A DNA stretch of 64,000 bases from Escherichia phage SP27. The number at the start of each line of letters is the position of its first letter. Positions within the stretch are counted from its first letter, which is position 1. Both the position numbers and the translations under genes were made by a program. Below, piece by piece: positions 816 to 52,771 of the stretch. The notes beneath the pieces are model-generated. The model was not told the DNA's origin and did not search any database. It saw only the letters and a list, made by a program, of their open reading frames with translations. Location: sequence record LC494302.1; one strand, written 5' to 3'.

Positions 816-817
816 TC

Positions 818-39008: not shown

Positions 39009-39248
39009 ATGGCTAAATCAAAAATGTTCTTAGGTCACAAAAACAAAACTCATTGGAATGTAAGCCTGTGGATTAATAACGATGAGGGATTGTATCGGTT
39101 GGCCCTGGACTTTATTGCCGCCAATACTAATCGCAATGATGCGGCCCGTCATATGATGTTATTTTTAGAACAGACTGGACAAGATAAAACACCGGACGGA
39201 TTCAAATATAGCACTACTGCGATCCGTGCGGCGATGGTTGGAATGTAA
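39009..39248 (+). CDS. hypothetical protein, family C (paralog of 41050..41289)
   Basis: PeSL + AAGAGG RBS; shared GHKNKTHWNVSLWINN and PDGFKYSTTAIRAAMVGM. Confidence 0.65.
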   Translation: MAKSKMFLGHKNKTHWNVSLWINNDEGLYRLALDFIAANTNRNDAARHMMLFLEQTGQDKTPDGFKYSTTAIRAAMVGM

Positions 39249-39261
39249 TAGAATTTATTTA

Positions 39262-39297
39262 AAGTACTATCATTTTTTTGCGATAGTACTTTATAAT
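39262..39297 (+). promoter_or_regulatory. promoter with AGTACTAT..ATAGTACT palindrome (operator-like)
   Basis: AGTACTATC..GATAGTACT inverted repeat + TATAAT; weak -35. Confidence 0.4.
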
Positions 39298-39334
39298 AGT
39301 GTTTTATTCATACACCAACGATAAGGGCAACAGC

Positions 39335-39601
39335 ATGAATATTAAGTATTTTGCGACGCGTGAACAAGCTCGGATCGCCGCACGCCAGGACGGGGCAACG
39401 TTTAAAGATATGGGAGCGGGATCGGCAAGTGGTGAACGTTGGGCCATTGTAAAGCGTAGTACGGCCAGATCTTTACAGTACTGGTTAGCGGCCTTAAAAA
39501 GTCCCGATAGTGTATCGCGTCGAGTGGTAGAAATAAAGCTCGACCGAAAGGGCAACCGCGTGACCGTGTACCGTACTAAAAAGATTGCAGTACTTGAATA
39601 A
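39335..39601 (+). CDS. hypothetical protein, family A (paralog of 52376..52771)
   Basis: AAGGG before ATG 39335; shared FYATREQARI..TFKDMG and DRKGNRVTVY. Confidence 0.6.
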   Translation: MNIKYFATREQARIAARQDGATFKDMGAGSASGERWAIVKRSTARSLQYWLAALKSPDSVSRRVVEIKLDRKGNRVTVYRTKKIAVLE

Positions 39602-39608
39602 AAAGTAC

Positions 39609-39668
39609 TTGCAAACTATGTTTAATGGCGTATAATGTTTTACATCGAGAGCGGGAACACTTCCCGCC
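39609..39668 (+). promoter_or_regulatory. PeSL cassette
   Basis: near-identical to 38931 copy; hairpin AGCGGGAACACTTCCCGC. Confidence 0.65.
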
Positions 39669-39688
39669 TATAACCTGGAGTAATAAAA

Positions 39689-39919
39689 ATGACTAATATG
39701 TATATGACTGAAGTTAAAACCGTAAAAGATACTACCACGAATAAAACTACTTACTTACAGCGGATCTGTGGTGTATGGCAACGTATCAGCAAATCAAAGT
39801 ACTTTAAATTAACATCATATGCAAATCGTTCGGATTCATTCAGTACTGAAATAAAAGGTAATAAAGTACACCAATACGGCACTTATTATTATTATAGCCT
39901 GGACGCGATTGCAGTATAA
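39689..39919 (+). CDS. hypothetical protein
   Basis: PeSL + GGAG RBS; 76 aa. Confidence 0.55.
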   Translation: MTNMYMTEVKTVKDTTTNKTTYLQRICGVWQRISKSKYFKLTSYANRSDSFSTEIKGNKVHQYGTYYYYSLDAIAV

Positions 39920-39949
39920 GCAGTTTACAAATCTTTACAATTGCCGGTA

Positions 39950-39978
39950 TTGACTTATTTTGTCAGTACTGGCATAAT
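39950..39978 (+). promoter_or_regulatory. sigma70-like promoter
   Basis: TTGACT-17-CATAAT, leader box follows about 25 nt downstream. Confidence 0.45.
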
Positions 39979-40002
39979 GTATTCATTGGCAGATAAGCCG
40001 TA

Positions 40003-40030
40003 GCCCATAGGGTGCGGGAGTGTATCTATA
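40003..40030 (+). promoter_or_regulatory. conserved leader box AGCCCAYAGGGTGC..GTGTATCTA
   Basis: one of 7 copies, each about 20-25 nt after a promoter -10. Confidence 0.4.
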
Positions 40031-40169
40031 GAAAAAGTAGTTTAGTATAGTTACAATTGTGCACCCGGTGGGTTAGCTGTTGTCATGGGGTATATTATGC
40101 CAGTACTTGATAATGCTGTCAATACTTTTTTTTTAATATTCAGTACTGAAAACTATTTTTAAAAAGTAC

Positions 40170-40320
40170 TTGCAAACTATGTTTAAAGGCGTATAATGTT
40201 TTACATCAGGACGGGGAACGAAATAAGTAACTTCCCGTTAAGTAGCCCAGGAGTAAGGCACACGAAAAACTCCCCTGATAAAATAGTTTGACAATTGTTT
40301 TTAAAAGCGTATAATACTTA
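40170..40320 (+). promoter_or_regulatory. dual-promoter cassette with structured leader (copy 1)
   Basis: TTGCAA/TATAAT, then about 70-nt element ATCAGGACGGGGAACG..ACTCCCCTGAT, then TTGACA-16-TATAAT; about 90% identical to 51146..51292. Confidence 0.55.
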
Positions 40321-40347
40321 CATCAACTACTGAATGAGGGTTACAAA

Positions 40348-40959
40348 ATGAAAACTATCACTACTACTACTTATGTTATGGCTTTTTCTGAATTGAACGC
40401 AGAACAACAAACGTCAGCTATCGAACTGGTTCGGGAACGTGAAAAAAACTTAAACGATGATTATTTTTCTGAAAGTGAAATTGAATACTATAAAGAAACA
40501 GTACTACCGGAATATGGCATTAATGACGCTGAAATACAATTCAGTGGCTTTTGGTCCCAGGGTGACGGTGCATCAATCAGTACTGACCACGTTGACGCAG
40601 TGAAGTTTTTACGCAAGGTAAGAGCATTAACTAAGTATCGCTCAATCCGTCACTTGCTGAATGAAGATGATTTGGCGATGAGTGTAAAGCGTTCGCACTC
40701 CCACTACTCGCATGAGAATACTGTAAGCGGGTACATTGAATCGGCTTACACTGATTTAACCGCAAAACAAGAAACGTTAGTTAATGAGCTTGAGGAACTA
40801 CTCACTGAAACTATTCGTGAATTATCCCGCAAGTTGTACCGTGATTTAGAGAATGCATATGAGGATCAATTCACTACTGAAAACATTACGGCACTGATTG
40901 AGGGTAACGAATATCAATTCAATGTTATTGATGGAGTAGTAGAATCAATCGAATATTAA
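40348..40959 (+). CDS. hypothetical acidic protein (203 aa)
   Basis: TTGACA/TATAAT promoter and GAGGG RBS upstream. Confidence 0.6.
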   Translation: MKTITTTTYVMAFSELNAEQQTSAIELVREREKNLNDDYFSESEIEYYKETVLPEYGINDAEIQFSGFWSQGDGASISTDHVDAVKFLRKVRALTKYRSIRHLLNEDDLAMSVKRSHSHYSHENTVSGYIESAYTDLTAKQETLVNELEELLTETIRELSRKLYRDLENAYEDQFTTENITALIEGNEYQFNVIDGVVESIEY

Positions 40960-40971
40960 TTTAAAAAGTAC

Positions 40972-41034
40972 TTGCAAACTAAGTTTAAAAGCGTATAATA
41001 CTTTATATCGAGGCGGGGAGTGGTTCCCCGCTCA
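40972..41034 (+). promoter_or_regulatory. PeSL cassette
   Basis: TTGCAA-16-TATAAT + hairpin GGCGGGGAGTGGTTCCCCGCTC. Confidence 0.65.
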
Positions 41035-41049
41035 AACGAGGATTTAAAA

Positions 41050-41289
41050 ATGGCTAGTACTAAAACTTACAACGGACACAAAAACAAAACTCATTGGAAT
41101 GTAAGCCTTTGGATTAATAACGGTGAGTCATTGTATCGGCTTGCTCAAAGTTGCATCGCACAAAGTAGAACTAAAGATATTGCTGCGGAATGTATGTACC
41201 GCAGATTAAAAGCCAACGGTACTACTACAACGCCGGACGGCTTTAAGTATAGCACTACTGCGATCCGTGCTGCAATGGTTGGAATGTAA
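41050..41289 (+). CDS. hypothetical protein, family C (paralog of 39009..39248)
   Basis: PeSL + GAGGA RBS before ATG 41050. Confidence 0.65.
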   Translation: MASTKTYNGHKNKTHWNVSLWINNGESLYRLAQSCIAQSRTKDIAAECMYRRLKANGTTTTPDGFKYSTTAIRAAMVGM

Positions 41290-41346
41290 TATTCAGTACT
41301 GAGATAATGGCGGGAACTATTACCCGCCTTTACTGAGGGTTATCTA

Positions 41347-41634
41347 ATGAGTAAAGTAATAAAGTACAATGTGTTAAGCAAATCATTGTCTATCAGTGAA
41401 TGCACCGATGGTTTTTGGATGTACGATGAAACGCGTGGCATGAATTTAGCTATGCGTGCAAAAACTGCTGAGGCGGCGTATATTCAAGCACTGGAATACT
41501 ACCAGGAACGTTTGAAGGAAGTAGAAGAAGATTATAAAAGCCTCAAAGCGAAAGTAGATCATTTCGTCGGTCAATTCGTGGAAGACAACGACGAGGACGG
41601 GCACTACTGCGACCGTTGCGGATCTTACAGTTAA
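41347..41634 (+). CDS. hypothetical protein
   Basis: hairpin then GAGGG RBS; 95 aa, C-terminal CDRC. Confidence 0.55.
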   Translation: MSKVIKYNVLSKSLSISECTDGFWMYDETRGMNLAMRAKTAEAAYIQALEYYQERLKEVEEDYKSLKAKVDHFVGQFVEDNDEDGHYCDRCGSYS

Positions 41635-41651
41635 GTACTAAGGATTATATA

Positions 41652-41864
41652 ATGAGTGATTTAATTGAACGTATCAAAGAGCTTGAAGAAAAAGAATTGC
41701 AGTTGATCGGGTTACGGAATAAAGTATTCCATGATTTAGGTGGCTTTATTAATGCCTGGGATAGTGGCGATCCTGATGCGTTACCTGCTAACCGCCAGGC
41801 GATGATCAATGATGTGCGTGGTGTCTTTGATTATGTTTTAAAAGTACTAGACACTAAGCAATAA
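41652..41864 (+). CDS. hypothetical protein
   Basis: AAGGA RBS before ATG 41652. Confidence 0.5.
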   Translation: MSDLIERIKELEEKELQLIGLRNKVFHDLGGFINAWDSGDPDALPANRQAMINDVRGVFDYVLKVLDTKQ

Positions 41865-41925
41865 AGGCGTATAATACTTTATATTGGTACTGACAAACAT
41901 TATAAGCGATGCAGGAGCTTTAATC

Positions 41926-42111
41926 ATGACAACATTATCTGAGGTTATCCGCGATCAAGCTGCAAAGGCTGGAATGACTGTTATCAATGTAGGGATCAAG
42001 ATTGAGATCTCCCCTAACGAGTTGCAAGGGATTCCCGATCCTACTAGCTGGGATCGTGCTGGGCGAATGATGAGTAATGCTTCATTACTGGACGGTACAA
42101 AATTTAATTAA
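41926..42111 (+). CDS. hypothetical protein
   Basis: AGGAG RBS before ATG 41926. Confidence 0.5.
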   Translation: MTTLSEVIRDQAAKAGMTVINVGIKIEISPNELQGIPDPTSWDRAGRMMSNASLLDGTKFN

Positions 42112-42118
42112 AAAGTAC

Positions 42119-42180
42119 TTGCAATTAGTTTTCAGTACTGTATAATGGTTTACATCAAAGGGAGAAATGGTTCTCCCTGG
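42119..42180 (+). promoter_or_regulatory. PeSL cassette
   Basis: TTGCAA-16-TATAAT + hairpin GGGAGAAATGGTTCTCCC. Confidence 0.65.
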
Positions 42181-42196
42181 TAATGAGGAAAATACA

Positions 42197-42418
42197 ATGG
42201 CTAATATCACTACTCTTTCCCAACTGGAAGCACTGGTTAAATCTATGCGGGAACATGCCGACAAAATCGGCGTACAAGATCCAGCCGTTTGCTTCTGCGA
42301 CGAATTGAATGATGATACACTGGTAATAGCAGAAGTCCAGGACGTTTCTAACTATTCCTCGCGTTACACTGGCGGCGTAGCAAATAAAGGTGACTTCTGT
42401 TTATACCTTACAAAATAA
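42197..42418 (+). CDS. hypothetical protein
   Basis: PeSL + GAGGA RBS before ATG 42197; followed by hairpin terminator. Confidence 0.6.
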   Translation: MANITTLSQLEALVKSMREHADKIGVQDPAVCFCDELNDDTLVIAEVQDVSNYSSRYTGGVANKGDFCLYLTK

Positions 42419-42421
42419 CAA

Positions 42422-42452
42422 CGCGGGGAGATAATAACTCCCCGTTACTTTT
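42422..42452 (+). terminator. rho-independent terminator
   Basis: CGGGGAGATAATAACTCCCCG + TTACTTTTT. Confidence 0.6.
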
Positions 42453-42586
42453 TCAGTACTGAATCATTTAATAGACGGATCTCGGCACCCGGTGGGTTAG
42501 TGACTGTTTCGTCTTGATGTAGTAATTATGCCAGTACTGGATGCACTTGTCAACAACTATTTTTCAAATACTTTTTATTAAAATAC

Positions 42587-42645
42587 TTGCAATTAGTTTT
42601 TAAACGCGTATAATGTTTTGCATAGGGGGAGCGGTTCCCCTGGTA
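42587..42645 (+). promoter_or_regulatory. PeSL cassette
   Basis: TTGCAA-16-TATAAT + hairpin GGGGGAGCGGTTCCCC. Confidence 0.65.
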
Positions 42646-42661
42646 ACTAAGGAATAATAAA

Positions 42662-42898
42662 ATGCTTGAACAAATCAAATCAACGTCTGCGAATGTAACG
42701 GGAACGGTTGTACACTTTACTAGTGATGAATCGCGGGGCGTTCCCTATTGTGCTGTACATGTAAACACTGATGGCAACTACTGGTTTACGGTTTACGGAT
42801 CATATTCATTTGGACGGCCAGGGCATCAAAAAATTCTGGATAAAGTACAACCAACGGGTAAAAATATCACTGCCGAAATGTTTTATAAAAAATCATAA
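42662..42898 (+). CDS. hypothetical protein
   Basis: PeSL + AAGGA RBS; 78 aa. Confidence 0.6.
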   Translation: MLEQIKSTSANVTGTVVHFTSDESRGVPYCAVHVNTDGNYWFTVYGSYSFGRPGHQKILDKVQPTGKNITAEMFYKKS

Positions 42899-42903
42899 AG
42901 TAC

Positions 42904-42965
42904 TTGCAATTAGTTTTTAGTACTGTATAATATTTTACATCGCAAGGGGAAACGGTTTCCCCTGG
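42904..42965 (+). promoter_or_regulatory. PeSL cassette
   Basis: TTGCAA-16-TATAAT + hairpin GGGGAAACGGTTTCCCC. Confidence 0.65.
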
Positions 42966-42982
42966 TAACTAAGGATAATCAA

Positions 42983-43282
42983 ATGAAAATTGCAATCATC
43001 GCCCTGGCTTTATCTGTTTCCTCTTTCGCTGTTAATGCGTCGTTAGATGTAAGTAGTGAAAAATTCATTCAGTGCACTGTTGCAATGACCGATGAAAGAA
43101 CTGGCGAGATTGTATTAAAGGATTTAGAGATCCAGCCGGAAGCATTTAAAAACGGCCCGTTCCATGAAGAAGACGAAAACGGTAGCACGACAATTTATTA
43201 TGATGCCAGTTCCAAGCGTGGATCGGTCACTGTAATGGATACTGAGAAAGTAACACACACAGGCGTTATTAATTGCCGTTGA
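42983..43282 (+). CDS. hypothetical secreted protein
   Basis: PeSL + AAGGA RBS; signal peptide MKIAIIALALSVSSFAVNA. Confidence 0.6.
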   Translation: MKIAIIALALSVSSFAVNASLDVSSEKFIQCTVAMTDERTGEIVLKDLEIQPEAFKNGPFHEEDENGSTTIYYDASSKRGSVTVMDTEKVTHTGVINCR

Positions 43283-43303
43283 TAGATACTACGGGGTAAC
43301 ATC

Positions 43304-43534
43304 ATGACTAAGCGAATTGTTTTACTTAACGAAAGCAGTACTACACAACTACTTAACGCCGTGCATTATGATATTGAAACGAGCGTTAATCTTATCAGTA
43401 CTGTAGTACTGTTGGACACTGGAAAGGTCGCCAATGATAAAGCGATTGCAGGTATATTAACGGATCTTGAGCCTGGTAGCAGTGCACCCATAACGTTAAA
43501 TGGTAAAGTGTTTAATATTTTACTCACTGATTAA
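43304..43534 (+). CDS. hypothetical protein
   Basis: GGGG RBS; 76 aa; followed by hairpin terminator. Confidence 0.55.
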   Translation: MTKRIVLLNESSTTQLLNAVHYDIETSVNLISTVVLLDTGKVANDKAIAGILTDLEPGSSAPITLNGKVFNILLTD

Positions 43535-43540
43535 GTACAT

Positions 43541-43568
43541 AGCCCACCAGGTGGGCTTTTTTGTTTTT
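43541..43568 (+). terminator. rho-independent terminator
   Basis: AGCCCACCAGGTGGGCT + TTTTTGTTTTT. Confidence 0.7.
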
Positions 43569-43616
43569 ATAGTATCGTAGTACTGAGATACTTTGAAAAT
43601 AGTTTTAAGAAAGTAG

Positions 43617-43700
43617 TTGACATTACCACAGAAAAGCGTAGAATGTATTACATCAAGACGGGGAGCACTAAGTAGACCGCCAGTAAGTCGAACGAAAAAC
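43617..43700 (+). promoter_or_regulatory. promoter + divergent structured leader
   Basis: TTGACA-16-TAGAAT then ACATCAAGACGGGGAGC.. element partly similar to the 40200/51180 leader. Confidence 0.4.
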
Positions 43701-43767
43701 TGGACACGTCGAGAAAACTTTGATACACTAATAAACGTAAACTAAACTTTAATTGAGGATTTATAAA

Positions 43768-44250
43768 ATGGCTAATGTAAAATCATTCATCAAAGCACTG
43801 GTAGCAAATGAAACTAACGTCGCGGCTGAGATCCTGGCTGAACTGGATAACGATACCATGAAAGCGGTACGCAATAATTTTAACATCGCGTACAGTACTG
43901 CGAAAGAACTACAAGCAAATAAAGCGGCAGAAATTGAAGCGGCAAAGGCGGCCCGTGAAGCAGAACTACAAGCAACAATCGAAAGTATCCAGGCGGCGGT
44001 GTCTGGATTGGATCTGGAAGTGGTTGTGGAAATGGCACATAAAGCCCTGGCGGTTAAGTATGGTGAAGATAAGCCAGAATCTAAACCTAAAAAATGGATT
44101 CAAGAACGTGTTACTGTAGTACTTGATAACGGGGAAGAACATATGATTCCTGTACGCGGTAACTGCATTGCGGTAGTACTGGACGCTATCAAAGAAAGCG
44201 GTATGACTCGCGAGGAATGGATCGAAGCTCATCGCAAAGTTGAAGCATAA
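43768..44250 (+). CDS. hypothetical protein with Ala/Glu-rich helical segment
   Basis: GAGGA RBS before ATG 43768; followed by hairpin terminator. Confidence 0.6.
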   Translation: MANVKSFIKALVANETNVAAEILAELDNDTMKAVRNNFNIAYSTAKELQANKAAEIEAAKAAREAELQATIESIQAAVSGLDLEVVVEMAHKALAVKYGEDKPESKPKKWIQERVTVVLDNGEEHMIPVRGNCIAVVLDAIKESGMTREEWIEAHRKVEA

Positions 44251-44271
44251 CAATTAAAGTACTGAATCACT

Positions 44272-44300
44272 AGCCCACCTTAAACAGTGGGCTTTTTTGT
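44272..44300 (+). terminator. rho-independent terminator
   Basis: AGCCCACC..AGTGGGCT + TTTTTGTG. Confidence 0.65.
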
Positions 44301-44309
44301 GTCTGTAGT

Positions 44310-44410
44310 ATTCCAGTCCACCAGCACCGCCTAGAATCGATTCTAACGCATTAAACTGATTATCTGATGCATTGCCCTAGCTGGTGGCGTGAAGGTCGTT
44401 AGAATGCGAT
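44310..44410. repeat. nested imperfect inverted repeats
   Basis: CCACCAGC..GCTGGTGG and AGAATCGATTCTAACGC / CGTTAGAATGCGATT arms. Confidence 0.4.
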
Positions 44411-44452
44411 TGAGAGCGTTTAAAGTATTTTGCAAAAAGTAATAAAAAGTAC

Positions 44453-44515
44453 TTGCACGATTAAGAGATTAGCGTATAATGTTTTACATCGAGAGGGGGA
44501 AACGGTTCTCCTTCC
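44453..44515 (+). promoter_or_regulatory. PeSL cassette
   Basis: TTGCAC..TATAAT + hairpin GAGGGGGAAACGGTTCTCCTTC. Confidence 0.6.
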
Positions 44516-44535
44516 AAATCAAAGGAATCAAAACA

Positions 44536-44763
44536 ATGGCTATTATCATTACTCGCGTATCTGGTACTACTGGCAACGAACAAGTAGTTGCAGTCATTAC
44601 CAACAAGGAAGGTGCGGAATTGCAAAATGCAATGAATACCTGGGCCGTTAATGAGTTCGGTCAGTGGGCAAGTGTAGCATACATTGAAACCTATCAAGTG
44701 CCGTCGATTAGTTTAACTGATTTGGGCGTTGAGCGTATCCTTTGCCTGGATGAATTAAATTAA
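44536..44763 (+). CDS. hypothetical protein
   Basis: PeSL + AAGGAA RBS before ATG 44536. Confidence 0.6.
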   Translation: MAIIITRVSGTTGNEQVVAVITNKEGAELQNAMNTWAVNEFGQWASVAYIETYQVPSISLTDLGVERILCLDELN

Positions 44764-44771
44764 AAAAGTAC

Positions 44772-44831
44772 TTGCAAAGTAAATCGAATAAAGTATAATA
44801 CATTACATCAAGGGGAGAAATGGTTCTCCCC
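44772..44831 (+). promoter_or_regulatory. PeSL cassette
   Basis: TTGCAA-16-TATAAT + hairpin GGGGAGAAATGGTTCTCCCC. Confidence 0.65.
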
Positions 44832-44848
44832 ACTACAAGGAAACTAAA

Positions 44849-44992: not shown

Positions 44993-45002
44993 AAATATTA
45001 TC

Positions 45003-46843: not shown

Positions 46844-46981
46844 ATGAATCCTAACGGTATAATTTACAGTACTCCTAAAACGAAAGCAGACAAGGTAAAC
46901 GCTAAAAAAGCGAAAGTAAAGGAGTACATCAAGCAAGGCATGACGCGAAAGGCGGCGATTCTAAAAGCTAAAAATAAATGA
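46844..46981 (+). CDS. possible small basic protein (45 aa)
   Basis: TAAATG junction; Lys-rich; followed by terminator. Confidence 0.35.
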   Translation: MNPNGIIYSTPKTKADKVNAKKAKVKEYIKQGMTRKAAILKAKNK

Positions 46982-46984
46982 AAA

Positions 46985-47012
46985 AAGTGGTTGACTTCGG
47001 TCAGCCATTTTG
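46985..47012 (+). terminator. terminator/promoter module
   Basis: GTGGTTGACTTCGGTCAGCCATTTTGCTATTATAT. Confidence 0.6.
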
Positions 47013-47045
47013 CTATTATATATTCATTGAGAGATAGCTCACTAG

Positions 47046-47076
47046 CCCACAGGGTGCAGGAGTGTATCTATTGTAT
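47046..47076 (+). promoter_or_regulatory. conserved leader box
   Basis: AGCCCACAGGGTGCAGGAGTGTATCTATTG followed by TATAAT. Confidence 0.4.
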
Positions 47077-47113
47077 AATGTTTGAGTACTTAAAACTATT
47101 TTTAAAAAAGTAC

Positions 47114-47172
47114 TTGCAAACTATCTCAATAAGCGTATAATGTTTTACATCGCAAGGGGAAACGGTTTCCCC
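47114..47172 (+). promoter_or_regulatory. PeSL cassette
   Basis: TTGCAA-16-TATAAT + hairpin GGGGAAACGGTTTCCCC. Confidence 0.65.
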
Positions 47173-47192
47173 TAGTAATAAGGAAACAAATC

Positions 47193-47534
47193 ATGACTAT
47201 CTCAATTGCTCAATCTAACTTTGAAAACGAAATCATCGCCCAGGCACTGCGTTTAAATGATGGTCGGGCCGAAATCAATTACGGTTTCAATTCAGGCGGT
47301 TGTGAAAAATATCAGTACTTTATAACTGCTGATGGCTGTGTCCTGGGCATCAATACAGTTATTGTAAACATCCAAAAAATTAATTTCAATGATCCAGACG
47401 ATAGCCAGTTTTACATCACTGGCGTAGACGTGAACTATGAGGATGACTCACTAACTGATGATCACACTGGCGAGCGGTTAGAAAGTGCATACGGTGAAGA
47501 TGATTATCAGTCCGGTCCAGAAGATTTCGAATAA
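47193..47534 (+). CDS. hypothetical acidic protein
   Basis: terminator/promoter, leader box and PeSL upstream; AAGGAAA RBS. Confidence 0.6.
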   Translation: MTISIAQSNFENEIIAQALRLNDGRAEINYGFNSGGCEKYQYFITADGCVLGINTVIVNIQKINFNDPDDSQFYITGVDVNYEDDSLTDDHTGERLESAYGEDDYQSGPEDFE

Positions 47535-47548
47535 TATAAAAAAATAGT

Positions 47549-47608
47549 TTGACAATAGATTATAGTACTGTATAATGTTTTACATGAAGGGGAGAATAGT
47601 TCTCCCCA
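47549..47608 (+). promoter_or_regulatory. PeSL cassette
   Basis: TTGACA-16-TATAAT + hairpin GGGGAGAATAGTTCTCCCC. Confidence 0.65.
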
Positions 47609-47627
47609 CTAACAGAGAGAAAACAAA

Positions 47628-47840
47628 ATGGCTAATATCCGGTCGAAATTAAAAAATGCAAAACAAGTTTTATTTTCAGATCATGAATACTTTAATAAAG
47701 ATATTACAGGAGTTACAAGTATCAAGGAAGTAAAAGAAAAAACCGGCGTTTTGTGTGATGTGCGATTAGTTGGAACATTTGGGAATAACGTGCTATATCG
47801 CTGCGGTGATTACAATTTTACACTGACTATCATTAACTAA
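47628..47840 (+). CDS. hypothetical protein
   Basis: PeSL + GAGAGAAA RBS; 70 aa. Confidence 0.6.
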   Translation: MANIRSKLKNAKQVLFSDHEYFNKDITGVTSIKEVKEKTGVLCDVRLVGTFGNNVLYRCGDYNFTLTIIN

Positions 47841-47861
47841 AAATATTATCACAGTACTATC

Positions 47862-47897
47862 AAAGCTATTGACAATGATTGATAGTACTGGCATAAT
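47862..47897 (+). promoter_or_regulatory. palindromic-operator promoter
   Basis: AGTACTATCAAAGCTATTGACAATGATTGATAGTACT + CATAAT. Confidence 0.55.
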
Positions 47898-47932
47898 AAC
47901 TTTTATCAACTACACTACTAAGGAATTAAAAA

Positions 47933-48112
47933 ATGGCTATCATCGCAAAAACTGAAATCGTTGGTCTGGATTCTATCATCATGACGTTTGAAGATCAAAA
48001 AGGTATGTATGTAGTTTCCTATGGTGATTATGTTCGGGAGTATGAAACGGTAGACGAAGCCTTTGAAAGTTATATTCGCCAGGTGAATAAAGCATACGAC
48101 GACTACCGCTAA
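47933..48112 (+). CDS. hypothetical small protein (59 aa)
   Basis: palindromic promoter + AAGGAA RBS; below track cutoff. Confidence 0.45.
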   Translation: MAIIAKTEIVGLDSIIMTFEDQKGMYVVSYGDYVREYETVDEAFESYIRQVNKAYDDYR

Positions 48113-48130
48113 AATATATTACCAGTACTA

Positions 48131-48167
48131 TTAAATCTATTGACAATGTTTGATAGTACTGTATAAT
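48131..48167 (+). promoter_or_regulatory. palindromic-operator promoter
   Basis: AGTACTATTAAATCTATTGACAATGTTTGATAGTACT + TATAAT. Confidence 0.55.
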
Positions 48168-48211
48168 AAGTTTTATAAACAGTAGTTAACTTAACCTAAG
48201 AGAGAAATAAA

Positions 48212-48355
48212 ATGATCGCACTGGATTCATTCATCGACGCAGTACTGGCAAAAACTGGCGAGGATCTGACCGCAGAACAATACGCGATGATCGAACAATG
48301 TCAACAGGACGGTAAATCGGTGAAAGATACTGTTAAGATTATCCGCAAGATGTAA
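48212..48355 (+). CDS. hypothetical small protein (47 aa)
   Basis: palindromic promoter + AGAGAGAAA RBS; followed by hairpin terminator. Confidence 0.45.
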   Translation: MIALDSFIDAVLAKTGEDLTAEQYAMIEQCQQDGKSVKDTVKIIRKM

Positions 48356-48360
48356 GATTA

Positions 48361-48392
48361 TAGCCCACTGGTTAACGCTGGTGGGCTTTAAT
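48361..48392 (+). terminator. rho-independent terminator
   Basis: AGCCCACTGG..GCTGGTGGGCT + TTT. Confidence 0.55.
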
Positions 48393-48460
48393 TCATCACC
48401 CTATACAATGCCAGTACTCAACCGTTTATCTCGTTAGAATGCGTTACAGGACGTTTAACA

Positions 48461-48658
48461 ATGATTAGCATGAAATCAGTACAAAAACAAATAGAAACAT
48501 TATCAAAAATTAAACGTAAACAGTACTCCTTAGAATATACAATCAATGGTAACTATCATCTAATGAAAGAGAATAATTTTATAGTCATTGATGAATCATT
48601 GCAAATCATTAGTATAGTACTGAAAGCATTAATCAATGACAGAAAAAAATTAAAATAA
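48461..48658 (+). CDS. hypothetical protein
   Basis: track ORF 65 aa; no convincing RBS. Confidence 0.35.
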   Translation: MISMKSVQKQIETLSKIKRKQYSLEYTINGNYHLMKENNFIVIDESLQIISIVLKALINDRKKLK

Positions 48659-48662
48659 TCTA

Positions 48663-48691
48663 TTGACAATATCATCCAGTACTGGCATAAT
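48663..48691 (+). promoter_or_regulatory. sigma70-like promoter
   Basis: TTGACA-17-CATAAT, leader box downstream. Confidence 0.45.
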
Positions 48692-48717
48692 ACTTACACC
48701 AAGACGAGAACGTCACT

Positions 48718-48746
48718 AACCCATAGGGTGCACAAATGTAACTGTA
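48718..48746 (+). promoter_or_regulatory. conserved leader box
   Basis: AACCCATAGGGTGCACAAATGTAACTG + TATAAT. Confidence 0.4.
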
Positions 48747-48749
48747 TAA

Positions 48750-48800
48750 TATTGATCAAAAAATGATCTGATCAATACTTGATCAATTTGCGTAAAGTAG
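48750..48800. other. GATC/TGATCA cluster in 330-bp ORF-free spacer
   Basis: TTGATCAAAAAATGATCTGATCAATACTTGATCAA: 4 GATC within about 40 bp. Confidence 0.4.
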
Positions 48801-48989
48801 TATAATTCTATGCAGTTGGTTAGACGAAAGGTTATGATTAGTAGTGCAAGTGTATAAAAATTTTCATGGTGTATCGTTCCGCACATATGGGGATGAATAT
48901 GTGGTATCATGTGGATTGGAAAAAGTAAGAACAAGTAATATTATTGTCGCATTACAGTACTATAGTATTTTTATAATGAGGTTAAAATA

Positions 48990-49247
48990 ATGGCTGTAGG
49001 ATTCGCGAAAGATGGGGCCGAACAAGACGAGATTAACGCAGTGATTCAGGCTGCCGTTAACCACGCTAGAAAGCAAATTAACGCACAAATAGAATCACTG
49101 ATACATTGCCTCGACTGCGGCGATATAATCCCTGAGAAACGACGCCAGGCCGTTAAGGGATGTAAGTACTGCATAACTTGCCAGGAGGATCATGATAGTA
49201 CTTTTAAACGTCCCCCGCGTAATTGTTGGCATAGATCTATGAGATAA
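48990..49247 (+). CDS. TraR/DksA-family C4 zinc-finger protein
   Basis: CLDCGDIIPEKRRQAV..CKYCITCQ matches the C4 finger pattern of TraR/DksA; GAGG RBS. Confidence 0.65.
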   Translation: MAVGFAKDGAEQDEINAVIQAAVNHARKQINAQIESLIHCLDCGDIIPEKRRQAVKGCKYCITCQEDHDSTFKRPPRNCWHRSMR

Positions 49248-49252
49248 AAAGT

Positions 49253-49281
49253 ATTGACAGTACTGAAAGATAGTTTATAAT
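49253..49281 (+). promoter_or_regulatory. sigma70-like promoter
   Basis: TTGACA-17-TATAAT upstream of GNAT-like gene. Confidence 0.55.
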
Positions 49282-49310
49282 ATTTTATATCTTAACTGAG
49301 GATTGAAATC

Positions 49311-49667
49311 ATGGGAATACAACATATCACGCGTACTACTGACAATGGCGAGATCACTGGCTATCAAGTACAGGGCAAAGTAGCACAATTGCAGTACTGG
49401 TTTGTTAAACGTGGAATCATTGCACCGGATCTTGATTATGACCGTGTAGCGTTTATTGATTCTCTTTATGTTGATCCTGATAGTCGGGGCAATGGTGAAG
49501 GTAACGAATTAATGAATGCCTTTATTGATGCCGCCGATGATTCAGATTGTATCATCTTAGAATGCGATACGGGAGAAGATAACGCCTTTAATCTTAAAGA
49601 ATGGTACGAAGGTTTCGGATTCGAGGTATTGATAGATAGTGAATATCCTATCATGATTTTATCATAG
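49311..49667 (+). CDS. GNAT-family acetyltransferase-like protein
   Basis: TTGACA/TATAAT promoter, GAGGA RBS; motif A-like RGNGEGNELM and motif B-like WYEGFGF. Confidence 0.55.
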   Translation: MGIQHITRTTDNGEITGYQVQGKVAQLQYWFVKRGIIAPDLDYDRVAFIDSLYVDPDSRGNGEGNELMNAFIDAADDSDCIILECDTGEDNAFNLKEWYEGFGFEVLIDSEYPIMILS

Positions 49668-49668
49668 T

Positions 49669-49728
49669 ACTTGCATTTAGTTTTCAGTACTGTTATAGTA
49701 CTTACATCAAGGGGAAACATCTTCCCCT
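49669..49728 (+). promoter_or_regulatory. PeSL-like cassette (degenerate -10)
   Basis: TTGCAT.. + hairpin AGGGGAAACATCTTCCCCT. Confidence 0.45.
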
Positions 49729-49745
49729 ACTAAGAGGAAATGAAA

Positions 49746-49934
49746 ATGGAAAACTTATCAAGTATTTTAGTACAAGATGATTTCGGTAATCCTGGAAGTG
49801 CTATCATTGTTCGGGGCAATAAAGCAACGTTTGTTATTGCTGGTGGACCCGTACAGCGTAGCATTAAAAATAATGCTGTTACCATTAATAATGTACGCTA
49901 TCGCTTAGATAAAGAATTAATTCATAAACTGTAA
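49746..49934 (+). CDS. hypothetical protein
   Basis: PeSL-like hairpin + GAGGA RBS 7 nt before ATG 49746. Confidence 0.5.
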   Translation: MENLSSILVQDDFGNPGSAIIVRGNKATFVIAGGPVQRSIKNNAVTINNVRYRLDKELIHKL

Positions 49935-49961
49935 TATTAATTTAATAGAGGATAACAATAA

Positions 49962-50285
49962 ATGTACATTCATACTACTATCACAAAGGAAGTCCGTTGC
50001 CAGTTCGAAAGTATTCCGGGCGTATGTTTCATCACTGGTACGTTTTCCCCTGGTGATCGTGATAATCCAGTACTGTTACAATTACGCCATCCATCATGGG
50101 ATAAAGCATTTGATCTACCGTTGAATGAATTCGCAACTACTGCTGAAAAGTACATTAAAAATATTCGCGAGAATGATCGACTATTCATTAATGCTTTTAG
50201 TGATTCCGCGTTAAGCGAGATCCACGGCGTATTGGTTGCAATCATGGAATCAATGCAGAAAACTAAATTCAAACAAGGTGAATAA
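49962..50285 (+). CDS. hypothetical protein
   Basis: AGAGGA RBS; 107 aa. Confidence 0.55.
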   Translation: MYIHTTITKEVRCQFESIPGVCFITGTFSPGDRDNPVLLQLRHPSWDKAFDLPLNEFATTAEKYIKNIRENDRLFINAFSDSALSEIHGVLVAIMESMQKTKFKQGE

Positions 50286-50291
50286 AAACTA

Positions 50292-50352
50292 TTGACAATA
50301 GATTATAGTACTGTATAATAAGTTACATGAAGGGGAGAAATGATTCTCCCCA
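50292..50352 (+). promoter_or_regulatory. PeSL cassette
   Basis: TTGACA-17-TATAAT + hairpin GGGGAGAAATGATTCTCCCC. Confidence 0.65.
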
Positions 50353-50368
50353 CTGAGAGGAAAGAAAA

Positions 50369-50581
50369 ATGCAAGGTCAACTAATCGTTCGTAAATGGTC
50401 TGATACTAACGAAAAACCGTGGGATGTACAATACATCGGACCGGATGGGGTATCACGTTATCAGCCTGGCGTAACGCATAGTACTGAGCAATATGCCGCC
50501 GCTCACCGCGAACGCCTGTTAGAATCCATGAAACAGGGATTCTGTGAAAAATTCATTCAAGATCATTGGCTGAAAGATTAA
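50369..50581 (+). CDS. hypothetical protein
   Basis: PeSL + GAGAGGAAA RBS; 70 aa. Confidence 0.6.
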   Translation: MQGQLIVRKWSDTNEKPWDVQYIGPDGVSRYQPGVTHSTEQYAAAHRERLLESMKQGFCEKFIQDHWLKD

Positions 50582-50598
50582 TAGAAGGAGTACAGCTT

Positions 50599-50691
50599 AT
50601 GCAAATGAATCCGATGATTATTGTTTTAGCTGTACTTATGATCATTCATGCAATTGTAGAAGTATTAACGCAATCAGGAGTAATAAAATGA
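50599..50691 (+). CDS. possible tiny hydrophobic peptide (30 aa)
   Basis: AAGGAG RBS; MQMNPMIIVLAVLMIIHAIVEVL... Confidence 0.35.
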   Translation: MQMNPMIIVLAVLMIIHAIVEVLTQSGVIK

Positions 50692-50861
50692 TTCAAGTAG
50701 AATTATCAGTACTGAAAGATCTGTTTTATCGGTTAGGTACTACTGGAGAGTATCCTAAAAGTGATACCGCAAAACTTTTTGTATCACTCGATTTATGGCA
50801 ACGCGAACAATTAGTAATGTCCTGGCGTAAAGGTAAAGCAGATAGCGAGGTGAAAGCATGA
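50688..50861 (+). CDS. hypothetical small protein (57 aa)
   Basis: ATGA overlap with upstream stop; GGAG nearby. Confidence 0.4.
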   Translation: MIQVELSVLKDLFYRLGTTGEYPKSDTAKLFVSLDLWQREQLVMSWRKGKADSEVKA

Positions 50862-51007
50862 AAGAATTCTTATTCGAAGTAGTGTTTCAAGGTGTCGGTA
50901 GTAATCAATTGATTCGCTCAAGTGGTTACAATGTTAACCAGGCATGGAATAACATTAAACAAATGTACCCGAACGCTATCACATATCGCAACCCAAAAGA
51001 AGTTTAA
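50858..51007 (+). CDS. hypothetical small protein (49 aa)
   Basis: ATGA overlap; followed by terminator. Confidence 0.4.
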   Translation: MKEFLFEVVFQGVGSNQLIRSSGYNVNQAWNNIKQMYPNAITYRNPKEV

Positions 51008-51016
51008 AAATAATTG

Positions 51017-51048
51017 AAAAAGGGATTGACTCCGGTCAGTCCCTTTGC
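51017..51048 (+). terminator. terminator/promoter module (GGGATTGACTCCGGTCAGTCCC type)
   Basis: AAAAAGGGATTGACTCCGGTCAGTCCCTTTGCTATTATAT. Confidence 0.65.
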
Positions 51049-51061
51049 TATTATATACGCA

Positions 51062-51092
51062 TAGAAACAAATCAGCCCACCGGGTGCATAAA
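51062..51092 (+). promoter_or_regulatory. conserved leader box
   Basis: AGCCCACCGGGTGCATAAATGTATCTATTG. Confidence 0.4.
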
Positions 51093-51145
51093 TGTATCTA
51101 TTGTTTGCTGGTGGCTAGTACTGAAAACTATTTTTAAAAAAGTAC

Positions 51146-51292
51146 TTGCATTGTACTTAGAATCAAGTATAATGTTTTACATCAGGACGGGGAACGAAAC
51201 AAGTAACCCCGTTAAGTAGTCCAGGAGTAAGACATACGAAAAACTCCCCTGATAAAATAGTTTGACAATAGAAAGTAAACGAGTATAATACT
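51146..51292 (+). promoter_or_regulatory. dual-promoter cassette with structured leader (copy 2)
   Basis: about 90% identical to 40170..40320 with compensatory changes in the hairpin (CGGGG..CCCCG). Confidence 0.55.
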
Positions 51293-51322
51293 TACATCAA
51301 CCACTGATAAGGAAACATAAAA

Positions 51323-51598
51323 ATGCGGATTCTACTGACAGCTAACGAAATCGAACAAGTACTGACTACTAACCTGGAAGACTGGAAACGTGAAGCAGAT
51401 ATCCAGGCGGTTCAATGGTTAAATGATAAGTTAACGCCGGATGACTTAAGCAAGATTGTAGATCCTCAATTCTACGAAGATATCCACGACACCGCGTTAA
51501 GCGTCGAGGATGTACTAGATAAGCACTTTATTGATACTGATTTGCAGGTTTACGGTCGTAAAAACTTTATCACTATTCACGACATTTACAATAATTAA
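51323..51598 (+). CDS. hypothetical acidic protein
   Basis: duplicated dual-promoter cassette upstream; AAGGAAA RBS. Confidence 0.6.
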   Translation: MRILLTANEIEQVLTTNLEDWKREADIQAVQWLNDKLTPDDLSKIVDPQFYEDIHDTALSVEDVLDKHFIDTDLQVYGRKNFITIHDIYNN

Positions 51599-51601
51599 GT
51601 A

Positions 51602-51665
51602 TTGACAAAGTATCTTAGTACTGTATAATAGTTTACATCGAGTGAGGGGAAACGGTTCCCCTCCT
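51602..51665 (+). promoter_or_regulatory. PeSL cassette
   Basis: TTGACA-16-TATAAT + hairpin GAGGGGAAACGGTTCCCCTC. Confidence 0.65.
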
Positions 51666-51686
51666 AACAAAGAGAGAGAAATAAAA

Positions 51687-51869
51687 ATGGCTAAGTGCAC
51701 TATCTGCAAGAAAGAAATAGTATTAGTTCCAAGTGCCCGTGAACGTGCCGCTCGGTTCGGTGGCAAAGCGTCAGACTATACAAAAATGTTTACTGCCCAT
51801 ACAGCTTGCCAGGTAGCAAAACGTTCACAAGAAAGCGTAGAATTAATGCGTAAACTTTCCAAAAAATAA
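51687..51869 (+). CDS. hypothetical small Cys-containing protein
   Basis: PeSL + AGAGAGA RBS before ATG 51687; CTICKK...HTAC. Confidence 0.55.
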   Translation: MAKCTICKKEIVLVPSARERAARFGGKASDYTKMFTAHTACQVAKRSQESVELMRKLSKK

Positions 51870-51872
51870 GTA

Positions 51873-51937
51873 TTGACAAAGTATCTTAGTACTGTATAAT
51901 AGTTTACATCAAGTGAGGGGAATGGTTCCCCTCCTAA
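51873..51937 (+). promoter_or_regulatory. PeSL cassette (near-duplicate of 51602)
   Basis: same promoter, hairpin GAGGGGAATGGTTCCCCTC. Confidence 0.65.
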
Positions 51938-51956
51938 CTAAAAGAGAGAAATAAAA

Positions 51957-52280
51957 ATGGCTATGATCCTTGCCCAGAAAGTAGAATTGAAAATTGTAAC
52001 CTCCTTTGACATTAACGTTAATCGGTGGACTGATTCACACGGCAATACTTACCACTCTTGCTACGTGTCTGCGTTAATTGGCGACCGCTGGGAAGACCTG
52101 GGACACGAAACCTTTACATACGGTTACGGTACACAAGGCGAATACACGGGCTTGGAGATCATTAAAGAAACCGTTATAGGTTTCAACCCGAAAGAAAAAG
52201 TTATTCACCGCATCGAGGAAGAGATCAACAAAGAAATAACAGTTCGCTACCACGATGTAAAACGTAAGAAAGACATGTAA
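51957..52280 (+). CDS. hypothetical protein, family B (paralog of 45074..45418)
   Basis: PeSL + AGAGAGA RBS. Confidence 0.6.
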   Translation: MAMILAQKVELKIVTSFDINVNRWTDSHGNTYHSCYVSALIGDRWEDLGHETFTYGYGTQGEYTGLEIIKETVIGFNPKEKVIHRIEEEINKEITVRYHDVKRKKDM

Positions 52281-52292
52281 TAGAATCCATTT

Positions 52293-52331
52293 AAAGTACT
52301 ATTTGACATTGCCCAGATAGTACTTTATAAT
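52293..52331 (+). promoter_or_regulatory. palindromic-operator promoter
   Basis: AGTACTATTTGACATTGCCCAGATAGTACT + TATAAT. Confidence 0.55.
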
Positions 52332-52375
52332 AGACTCTAACTTGTAGTACTAACTCAACTAATAGGATGTATACC

Positions 52376-52771
52376 ATGATTACTAAATTCTACGCTACCC
52401 GTGAAGCTGCCCGTATTGTTGCACGCGAGGAAGGCGAAACATTTAAAGACATGGGCAAAGATGCACCGAAAGGTCAACGCTGGGCCGTACAGTTCAAAGA
52501 GATCTCTGATATTGTGAATTCACCGGAGCCAGTACTAACAGCAGCAGAACTAAAACGAGCGGATTTACTGGCGTCAATACTTGATGCACAAGATGAGTTT
52601 ATCGCTGATTCTGATATCAAAGTACAGACAAACCACACCGCTTGGACTCACGCGGATCACCTGGCAAACCTTAAGCGTCCAAGTGAACTGATTCGCAACC
52701 AGAAAGAGATCCGACACGACCGTAAGGGTAATCGTGTAACAGTATACAGTAAACGCCGCCAGGTTATCTAA
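52376..52771 (+). CDS. hypothetical protein, family A (paralog of 39335..39601)
   Basis: palindromic promoter; AGGA 8 nt before ATG 52376. Confidence 0.6.
   Translation: MITKFYATREAARIVAREEGETFKDMGKDAPKGQRWAVQFKEISDIVNSPEPVLTAAELKRADLLASILDAQDEFIADSDIKVQTNHTAWTHADHLANLKRPSELIRNQKEIRHDRKGNRVTVYSKRRQVI

Follow-up and report, generated by a model that had tools for sequence, protein, structure and literature searches.

Promoter-hairpin cassettes and probable gene shuffling in the direct terminal repeat of Escherichia phage SP27

A stretch of 64,000 nucleotides (nt) of Escherichia phage SP27 (LC494302.1), here called the window, carries on its + strand a dense array of small genes, most of which are preceded by a portable regulatory unit of ∼90 nt consisting of a promoter and, in its full design, a hairpin. 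A preliminary description of this DNA called the units promoter-early stem-loops (PeSLs) and proposed, from three gene pairs, two near-identical units and a shared 20-mer, that the cassettes recombine with one another. The window belongs to an Asteriusvirus (121Q/PBECO4-type; RaK2-like jumbo) coliphage. A megablast search with positions 38-58 kb matched 223 phage records, mostly Escherichia jumbo phages of that genus (121Q, PBECO4, G17, CRJP21, E9.1), at 90-97% identity, and the largest one-place query coverage by any record was 69%.

The array occupies the direct terminal repeat (DTR) of the genome. Base 1 of the linear records of CRJP21, E9.1, fEgEco12 and vB_Ec-M-J aligns to window position 36822, and the vB_Ec-M-J record annotates 1..21525 as 'Direct Terminal Repeats'. 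Restriction digests of fEgEco12 confirm a DTR of 20,993 bp (PMC13070987). The end of that repeat corresponds to window position ∼57750. Because the mapped left end and the annotated or confirmed repeats of relatives coincide, the segment earlier termed the PeSL region (38.4-57.6 kb) can be equated with the DTR. The repeat presumably stands at both ends of the SP27 genome, with one copy visible in the window. The approximately 53 + strand genes of the DTR are 30-203 codons long. Nine were scanned against family databases; they fall into families without known function (DUF7249 and five PHROGs), apart from gene 45820, which gave no match.

Twenty-three + strand units have the full design, not counting a spurious hit at 37718, and 22 of them lie inside the 21-kb DTR. 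In order, such a unit displays an A-rich stretch with AGTAC, a -35 box (TTGACA or TTGCAA), a 16-nt spacer, TATAAT, a near-invariant TTTACAT, a G/C stem of 7-9 bp, a Shine-Dalgarno sequence and ATG. The A/T-rich stretch upstream of the -35 box reads AAAAAGTAC or AAATAGTAC, and the predicted promoters are of the strong sigma70-consensus kind that characterizes PeSLs: 11 sites match TTGACA-N16/17-TATAAT at all 12 positions and more than 20 match at 10-11 of 12, all on the + strand and inside 20 kb.

A perfect stem of 7-9 bp starts 8-15 nt past the -10 box in 22 of the 23 units, e.g. GGGGAGAA-atgg-TTCTCCCC. Pairing is kept through compensatory GC to AT and GC to CG double changes, counted on hairpins aligned from the loop and preselected as perfect stems, which limits the test; judged by these changes, the hairpin appears to be under selection. 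A MAFFT alignment of the 23 leaders put the stems out of register and was replaced by the loop-anchored one. An intrinsic (rho-independent) terminator has a T-run directly after the stem, whereas no T-run follows the main-class stems (the sequences that follow are ACTAA, GGTAA, CTAAC, CAAAC and similar), and a terminator scan called no main-class hairpin. The hairpin would instead be part of the mRNA 5′ leader and act there as a stabilizer or insulator.

The palindromic hexamer AGTACT, often within CAGTACTG, is found in 135 copies in the DTR, where ∼7 are expected from base composition. Its density is 6.5 per kb in the DTR and 3.4 per kb in the remaining window. Within 38.4-57.7 kb, 60 copies are coding and 61 intergenic, and it stands directly upstream of many -35 and -10 boxes.

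Table 1. Features of the SP27 terminal repeat (window coordinates)
Feature	Position	Strand	Description
DTR	36822..57750	+	whole array: ∼53 small, presumably early genes and ∼44 predicted sigma70-type promoters
Putatively excisable cassette	51587..51959	+	gene 51687-51869 between near-identical units 51587-51689 and 51858-51959
Single cassette	46512..46609	+	two cassettes around an extra 252-nt gene in ELP-22 and WPEC5
Single hairpin-less cassette	53069..53143	+	two ∼80-nt near-identical copies around an extra 219-nt gene in CRJP21 (three-way alignment)
Single promoter	51247..51325	+	two promoters around extra gene 301 in 121Q
Replacement block	41053..42098	+	four genes (41050, 41347, 41652, 41926), from the start codon after one cassette to the start of the next
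Pair 1, copy A	38916..39248	+	promoter+hairpin cassette 38916-39011, DUF7249 gene 39009-39248
Pair 1, copy B	40957..41289	+	cassette 40957-41052, DUF7249 gene 41050-41289; variable slot
Pair 2, copy A	39262..39601	+	hairpin-less promoter, gene 39335-39601 (phrog_8127)
Pair 2, copy B	52288..52771	+	TTGACA-17-TATAAT promoter, gene 52376-52771 (phrog_8127, internal insertion)
Pair 3, member 1	44997..45418	+	hairpin-less TTGACA-17-CATAAT promoter, gene 45074-45418 (phrog_6246); apparently replaced allele
Pair 3, member 2	51858..52280	+	promoter+hairpin unit 51873, gene 51957-52280 (phrog_6246)
20-mer, copy 1	45980..45999	+	inside coding sequence 45820-46092, in a ∼100-nt stretch missing from 121Q
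20-mer, copy 2	48436..48455	+	leader directly upstream of ATG 48461 (gene 48461-48658), including its AGGA Shine-Dalgarno sequence
Double-promoter module, copy 1	40142..40333	+	promoter, ∼95-nt non-coding stretch, second promoter; ahead of gene 40348
Double-promoter module, copy 2	51117..51307	+	ahead of gene 51323
Composite terminator-promoter module, copy 1	46971..47199	+	terminator hairpin, -35 in 12-bp stem, TATTAT -10, CCCAYMGGGTGC box, promoter+hairpin unit
Composite module, copy 2	53998..54226	+	81.7% identical to 46971-47199
Composite module, copy 3	51005..51194	+	shorter; 77% identical to 46971-47199
Composite module, copy 4	56254-56355	+	shorter
Box CCCAYMGGGTGCNNNNRTGTAWC	40004-40026, 47046, 48720, 51076, 54073, 56324	+	six copies
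Box CCCAYMGGGTGCNNNNRTGTAWC	40050-40072	-	one copy

Junctions, breakpoints and gene content among relatives

The homologous region of eight relatives and the left 3 kb of a ninth were compared with the window by chained blastn blocks. Five sites were found where one genome has a single cassette and another has two cassettes with a gene between them. The clearest involves the units at 51602 and 51873, which are 271 nt apart and were rightly described earlier as near-identical: 51585-51693 and 51856-51963 are 92.7% identical over 109 nt, with an identical core of 44 nt. Phage 121Q does not have the gene that they enclose. It has one unit, whose 5′ flank is that of the left copy and whose 3′ part is that of the right copy, with the crossover inside the 44-nt core.

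The other four sites are single in the window and double in a relative (Table 1). At 46512-46609 the window has a block overlap of 59 nt and the relatives have 281 additional nt; a three-way alignment displays a left/right chimera around an identical core of 31 nt. At the hairpin-less cassette, the extra gene of CRJP21 has annotated counterparts in G17, 121Q and WPEC5. The promoter at 51247-51325 lies in a 55-nt block overlap, and the three-way alignment gives a common 22-nt core, TGATAAAATAGTTTGACAATAG. The fifth case is an extra 234-nt gene in vB_Ec-M-J, between two copies of the 39009 cassette; its basis is a blast block overlap of 80 nt (38926-39005), where the other four rest on three-way alignments. 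At all five junctions the single copy is a chimera of left flank and right flank, with the switch inside a stretch common to both flanking copies.

The cassettes are also internally mosaic. Identity among promoter halves and identity among hairpin halves correlate weakly (r = 0.20). Cassette 39609 has a promoter like that of 38931 (95%) and a hairpin like that of 38471 (90%), and cassette 46298 combines the promoter of 42587 with the hairpin of 50292. On this sequence comparison, promoter and hairpin halves have been reassorted.

Breakpoints of homology, which the preliminary description had proposed to map relative to the PeSLs, cluster at cassettes. Of 50 unique breakpoints, 31 are no more than 10 nt from a cassette, compared with 23% expected (p 6e-9, 8 relatives). 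In a conservative set, with blocks of at least 200 nt and the complete cassette list, 24 of 35 fall in cassettes and 24% are expected (p 4e-8). Several left breakpoints coincide with a start codon (41052, 44851, 53144), and several right breakpoints with the first bases of the next cassette (42099-42101, 54440, 50284). The replacement block of Table 1 is an example: CRJP21, E9.1 and fEgEco12 have 153 nt (one 165-nt gene) in place of 1046 nt, and homology stops at 41052 and resumes at 42099. The clustering does not extend to a null that excludes gene interiors, against which it is not significant (24/29, p = 0.06). The location statistics were accordingly demoted in favour of junction anatomy, which is the stronger evidence.

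The most probable interpretation, held with considerable confidence, is that the ∼21-kb DTR is a hyperplastic array in which recombination between promoter cassettes shuffles genes. The earlier proposal of cassette recombination is thereby upheld, mainly by evidence from beyond the window: the five chimeric junctions, the breakpoint clustering, the mosaic cassettes and the gene order of a phage of another genus described below. The genes of the DTR are presumably immediate-early, and would be transcribed early by the host RNA polymerase. Because the units have identical cores of 20-45 nt in common, they could serve as dispersed sites for homologous recombination. A crossover between two units would delete or excise the intervening gene; by the same route a gene carrying such a unit might be inserted, or one gene replaced by another. 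The partners in such an exchange could be units within one genome, relatives that infect a cell together, or phages of different genera that build their cassettes alike. Its products would include the gene families and shared segments first noticed in the window. Recombination in the array would then be homologous and templated by the cassettes, and not merely filtered by selection. The sequences themselves document the cassette architecture, the compensatory changes in the hairpins, the chimeric junctions, the uneven spread of genes and alleles, and the design and genes common to different genera.

An alternative is that illegitimate or unspecific recombination occurs anywhere, that selection keeps the events with intergenic endpoints, and that the cassettes resemble one another through constraint on promoter, leader and ribosome-binding sequences. 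Cassettes make up 68% of the non-coding space, which together with the p value of 0.06 in that space agrees with such a process, as do breakpoints at gene ends that have no cassette (43275, 43551, 49934, 48979) or in the interior of genes. The five junctions speak against it, having one chimeric cassette where the other genome has two flanking ones; joining of ends at random would not regenerate a complete unit on every occasion. Cassettes are also alike in the 16-nt spacer and the upstream flank, for which no promoter function is known, and the promoter and hairpin halves are reassorted. This alternative is considered quite improbable.

Several points nevertheless weigh against cassette-templated shuffling. 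Because of the result with the intergenic null, location alone does not separate it from recombination of any kind on which selection for intact genes then acts. Since the cassettes resemble one another, BLAST alignments continue through any of them and shift apparent breakpoints to their edges. Gene interiors hold six breakpoints (45341, 45393, 45950, 41594 and others), so that some exchange takes place without cassettes. Each event may have been an insertion or a deletion, and early expression and a leader function of the hairpin are predictions. Finally, the 20-mer treated in the last section is old, and the cassette model leaves it unexplained.

Gene content in the DTR is mosaic. Twenty-six of the 53 genes are not found at 80% nt identity or more in all 8 relatives, although a few of these absences arise where a relative's locus stops short of the last genes. 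Across the DTR, neighbouring genes differ in which relative is closest. Several DTR genes have two or three sharply distinct alleles among close relatives, in combinations that do not follow one tree. Three loci illustrate the allele classes by nt identity: 47628-47840 (100% vs 72-74%), 50369-50581 (98-100% vs 88%) and 56052-56252 (99-100% vs 90% vs 76%).

It might be asked whether repeats and paralogs are collapsed or chimeric products of assembly, given that repeats are plentiful here and that terminal repeats, of which this region is part, are often collapsed by assemblers. Genes, cassettes and 20-mers recur, however, at matching positions in eight phages that come from different countries and were sequenced independently; the left 3 kb is also present in a ninth, and the paralogs are diverged rather than identical. 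The probability of such an artefact is considered negligible, and the preliminary description, which had named it as a possible refutation, can be relieved of it.

Gene pairs and their counterparts in other phages

The members of each of the three gene pairs first noticed in the window are homologues. In an all-vs-all blastp search of the window's open reading frames, 39009/41050 display 64.6% identity over 79 amino acids (E 1e-33), 39335/52376 display 35% over 125 aligned columns (E 4e-17), and 45074/51957 display 32% over 109 amino acids (E 6e-9). The similarity of all three is thus above background, and each pair falls into one PHROG family: phrog_871 (Pfam DUF7249), phrog_8127 and phrog_6246, respectively. 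Among + strand proteins inside 38.4-57.6 kb, no other pairs were found at E<0.01, except for open reading frames that merely read through cassettes. It had also been stated that each copy has its own promoter cassette. This is so for all six genes, but the cassettes belong to different classes.

In pair 1 the duplicated DNA includes the cassettes, which are related promoter+hairpin units; 38918-39250 and 40960-41291 are 74.5% identical over 337 nt. Gene 39009 is 94.9% identical in amino acid sequence to gp124 of Phapecoctavirus nieznany, and is closer to it than to its partner. Gene 41050 is present at 80% nt identity or more only in ELP-22 and WPEC5 among the 8 relatives. The slot that it occupies, after cassette 40972, holds four unrelated genes across phages; G17, 121Q and CRJP21 have three unrelated genes there. 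Pair 1 belongs to a widely circulating family. Two patches of the pair are exact, of 32 nt (39036-39067/41077-41108) and 23 nt (39207-39229/41248-41270), with synonymous sites unchanged. In DNA that is otherwise 74.5% identical this is suggestive, and only suggestive, of gene conversion between the paralogs.

Pair 2 has the appearance of a duplication, specific to its lineage, of a gene together with its promoter. The upstream regions align and display a related hairpin-less promoter with a common GATAGTACTTTATAATAG. The family is confined to RaK2-like jumbo phages, where it has two places per Asteriusvirus genome and one place in RaK2, K64-1 and GAP32.

Pair 3 has a different character. At the 45074 locus, G17, CRJP21, 121Q and ELP-22 carry an allele of 107 amino acids that is 36-39% identical to that of the window, and among the 8 relatives the window's allele is found only in E9.1 (95% nt). 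The breakpoints of the replacement are at 45058, in the cassette, and at 45341, in the conserved 3′ end of the gene. The protein is 84% identical to gp125 of P. nieznany, compared with 34% to its partner 51957. It matches 115 records at 80-90% amino acid identity, those listed being phages of the phi92/Phapecoctavirus/Justusliebigvirus type with genomes of ∼145-154 kb, and only 8 records at 95% or more. Gene 51957, by comparison, is kept in 8 of 8 relatives at 91-100% nt identity, and its lineage comprises 36 records: 35 Escherichia and Salmonella jumbo phages at 90% or more and one at 40%. As judged from these identities, gene 45074 is a xenologous allele replacement, closest to phi92/phAPEC8-type phages, and pair 3 does not appear to be a local duplication.

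Could the three pairs be simple intragenomic duplications that diverged, with nothing to say about cassette exchange? The distribution and upstream similarity of pair 2 fit such an origin, as do the inclusion of cassettes in the duplicated DNA of pair 1 and the age of all pairs (32-65% amino acid identity). At least one member of pair 1 and of pair 3, however, looks acquired or exchanged and not duplicated in place, because it is closer to genes of other phages than to its partner. As an account of all three pairs, duplication is therefore doubtful. The pairs are old and of mixed origin, and are a weaker clue to shuffling than was implied when they were first described.

The relationship with Phapecoctavirus extends to the design of the cassettes. 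P. nieznany has a genome of 145 kb and belongs to subfamily Stephanstirmvirinae, which is different at the family level. Its small genes are preceded by a like unit, with a TTGACA promoter, a hairpin ACATAGGGCGGGAA..TTCCCGCC (GCGGGAA..TTCCCGC), a Shine-Dalgarno sequence and ATG. Six gene families of the window have homologues there, in a different order. By the window's gene numbers, the order in P. nieznany is 54526, 38554, 47933, 45074, 39009, 44536, and that of the window is 38554, 39009, 44536, 45074, 47933, 54526. This cross-genus reordering is shuffling on a wider scale than was first proposed.

A more far-reaching idea, put forward tentatively and with somewhat less than even expectation, is that the Asteriusvirus DTR is an open exchange platform for immediate-early genes of host takeover or anti-defence. 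The cassette, common to phi92/phAPEC8-type Stephanstirmvirinae, would be both an expression signal and a portable recombination site; genes could cross phage families during co-infection and be expressed at once. The 45074 allele would be one such transfer.

Comparison with known systems

The closest known parallel is the PeSL of T4-type phages (Arbiol et al., 2010, PMC2839356; Comeau et al., 2014, PMC4122927). This is an intergenic unit of ∼100 nt with an A/T-rich stretch, a consensus sigma70 promoter, a polyG/polyC stem-loop, a Shine-Dalgarno sequence and a start codon. PeSLs are effective terminators, and exchange between neighbouring units gives rise to encapsidated mini-circles (PMC2839356, PMC4122927). 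The units of SP27 have the same parts and likewise lie in hyperplastic regions, upstream of small ORFans. As in the T4-type phages, insertions, deletions and replacements between close relatives are bounded by units, including the arrangement of two flanking units in one phage and one in its relative (Fig. 3 of the T4 work), of which there are five cases here. Four defining features of PeSLs, namely promoter, stem-loop, concentration in hyperplastic regions and unit-bounded insertions and deletions, are found. One T4 subclass, with the -35 box inside a terminator stem, has counterparts at 46984, 51019, 54011 and 56267.

There are also differences. The carrier is an Asteriusvirus (RaK2-like jumbo phage) and not T4-like, and the array fills the DTR. 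The hairpin has a fixed place (8-15 nt past the -10 box in 22 of 23 units), probably inside the transcript. Because of this position and the missing T-run, the main-class hairpin is unlikely to be the effective terminator of T4-type PeSLs. The design and the gene families are, in addition, common to an unrelated subfamily, the Stephanstirmvirinae.

The morons of lambdoid phages, described by Juhala, Hendrix and colleagues, are autonomous units with their own promoter and sometimes a terminator, which are located between genes and variably present. Both systems consist of self-contained inserted gene units that vary among relatives. Morons, however, are isolated and have dissimilar regulatory flanks, whereas here there are dozens of units with one standard cassette that would supply the homology for exchange. 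In phage T5, the pre-early genes lie in long direct terminal repeats, the first-step-transfer DNA, and include small host-takeover genes expressed first from host-type promoters. The T5 repeat is not known as an array of standardized recombining cassettes. The ends of Asteriusvirus UE-S1 were assigned by PhageTerm to the class 'long-ended T5 type' (PMC12805682). The likeness is in the long DTR with small genes; two-step DNA entry is a T5 feature.

An analogy with integrons is functional only. There, too, small promoter-proximal genes with varied functions come, go and change places as units between short conserved sites. Integrons use a site-specific tyrosine-recombinase integrase, attC and attI sites and one common promoter. 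In SP27 each gene has its own promoter and exchange looks like general homologous recombination; the five junctions display plain sequence homology and not attC-like structure, and no integrase is evident, although no search aimed at integrases was made. With regard to the hairpin, the 5′-terminal stem-loop of the ompA leader is reportedly an mRNA stabilizer, according to work of Emory, Bouvet and Belasco from 1992. The SP27 hairpin similarly is a stable structure that precedes the ribosome-binding site and lies within a few nt of the 5′ end predicted for the transcript. It differs in its predicted unpaired 5′ tail of 5-7 nt, which is at the upper limit for the effect.

A search of the literature on Asteriusvirus, RaK2-like and Phapecoctavirus phages found no prior description of such cassettes. 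The CBB paper describes RpoD-like promoters with UP elements clustered ahead of short early open reading frames, and reports no stem-loops or shuffling. Modular shuffling by PeSLs is thus already known from T4-type phages, and its extension to Asteriusvirus is new within the literature searched. Of interest are the location in a terminal repeat, the fixed position of the hairpin and the exchange with another phage subfamily.

PeSL-type shuffling, so far documented for T4-like phages, would thereby be extended to RaK2-like jumbo phages, and to what is presumably the earliest-expressed part of the genome. It would explain why Asteriusvirus genomes that are otherwise 90-97% identical differ here by whole small genes, a matter of relevance to the phage-therapy candidates of the genus (PBECO4, phAPEC6, fEgEco12, UE-S1). 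The variable early genes may represent a mobile pool common to phi92/phAPEC8-type phages and a place to seek host-takeover and anti-defence functions. For experiments, the unit of 271 nt from 51602 to 51873 is a tangible starting point.

The shared 20-mer, longer modules and flanking arrays

A 20-mer, AGAATGCGTTACAGGACGTT, had been reported both inside coding sequence 45820-46092 and in intergenic DNA at about 48431. Both copies exist and are exact, at 45980 and 48436, but the second starts 5 nt from the position first given and is part of a gene leader rather than anonymous intergenic DNA (Table 1). The pair is unlikely to have arisen by chance: by an estimate from base composition, ∼0.002 would be expected in the DTR and 0.02 in the window, and none of 100 shuffles had two matches. 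Identity does not extend beyond the 20 nt on either side, gapped alignment included. The 20-mer stands away from every cassette boundary, does not exceed its flanks in conservation, and lends no support to recombination between cassettes.

The 20-mer might rather be a functional site at both places, for protein binding or RNA-RNA pairing, and not a recombination scar. Both copies are exact in every relative that possesses the locus, and the sequence displays CGTTA/CGTT at a spacing of 10 nt. Copy 1 passes into a tandem CGTTACAGG(A/G) repeat, the ribosome-binding site of 48461 is covered by copy 2, and there is a degenerate third copy near 38303. With the low-quality CMSTMSU sequence set aside, however, the flanks are about as conserved as the 20-mer in relatives, and a scan of IMG/VR matched only 121Q itself. 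The DTR also has another isolated exact pair of 20 nt outside the cassettes, TGAAAAATATCAGTACTTTA, at 45500-45519 (the first codons of gene 45499) and 47303-47322 (the interior of gene 47193). A functional site is accordingly thought unlikely.

Two longer modules were absent from the preliminary list of shared segments. The double-promoter module is the longest shared DNA segment, and its two copies are 86.5% identical over 193 nt. The genes downstream, 40348 and 51323, are unrelated by blastp. A third, diverged copy lies at 43597-43767. The non-coding stretch of ∼95 nt between the tandem promoters (40198-40290, 51174-51264, 43645-43735) is conserved ahead of three unrelated genes, and in the third copy one inner helix has GC-to-CG changes on both sides. 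The composite terminator-promoter module, of ∼230 nt, has terminator-like hairpins at 46984, 51019, 54011 and 56267, which overlap the -35 box and look like intrinsic terminators; the last three are identical.

RNA folding of the two larger shared non-coding modules gave z-scores of -3.0 to +1.0, only two covarying pairs among three copies, and no convincing structured RNA. The ∼95-nt stretch has a z-score of -3.0 in one copy and weak scores in the others. An Rfam search of 36-60 kb at E<=1 found only a chance Trp-leader match.

The box of the composite modules is found 7 times in the window and 0 times in shuffles. Each copy is ∼25-30 nt downstream of a promoter with no open reading frame behind it, and four copies come after a terminator hairpin with the -35 box in its stem. 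The box may mark a short transcript that encodes no protein, or may be a site for a protein or for antitermination; folding around it gave no significant structure. Two opposed promoter+box units lie at 39950-40122, inside a gene-free gap of 430 nt: a + strand promoter at 39950-39978 with its box at 40004, and a - strand promoter at 40122-40094 with its box at 40072-40050, ∼24 nt apart. Convergent short transcripts from this site are possible.

Degenerate tandem repeats with periods of 8, 24 and 32 nt, in units like GGACGGCT, AAACGGCT and AGATGGCT, are found at 37567-37727. They precede the first promoter cassette, at a distance of ∼750-900 nt from the left genome end, and are a candidate element for terminus, packaging or replication.

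Runs of paralogous genes surround the DTR. On the - strand, 17850-32064 carries an array of ∼11 paralogs of 270-430 codons, with pairwise E values down to 6e-57. A + strand paralog run of genes of ∼60 codons, at 32566-36548, stops just short of the genome end. Directly past the DTR end, ∼25 paralogous genes of ∼65-96 codons lie in tandem at 57848-63617 (+ strand), head to tail and with no promoters between them.

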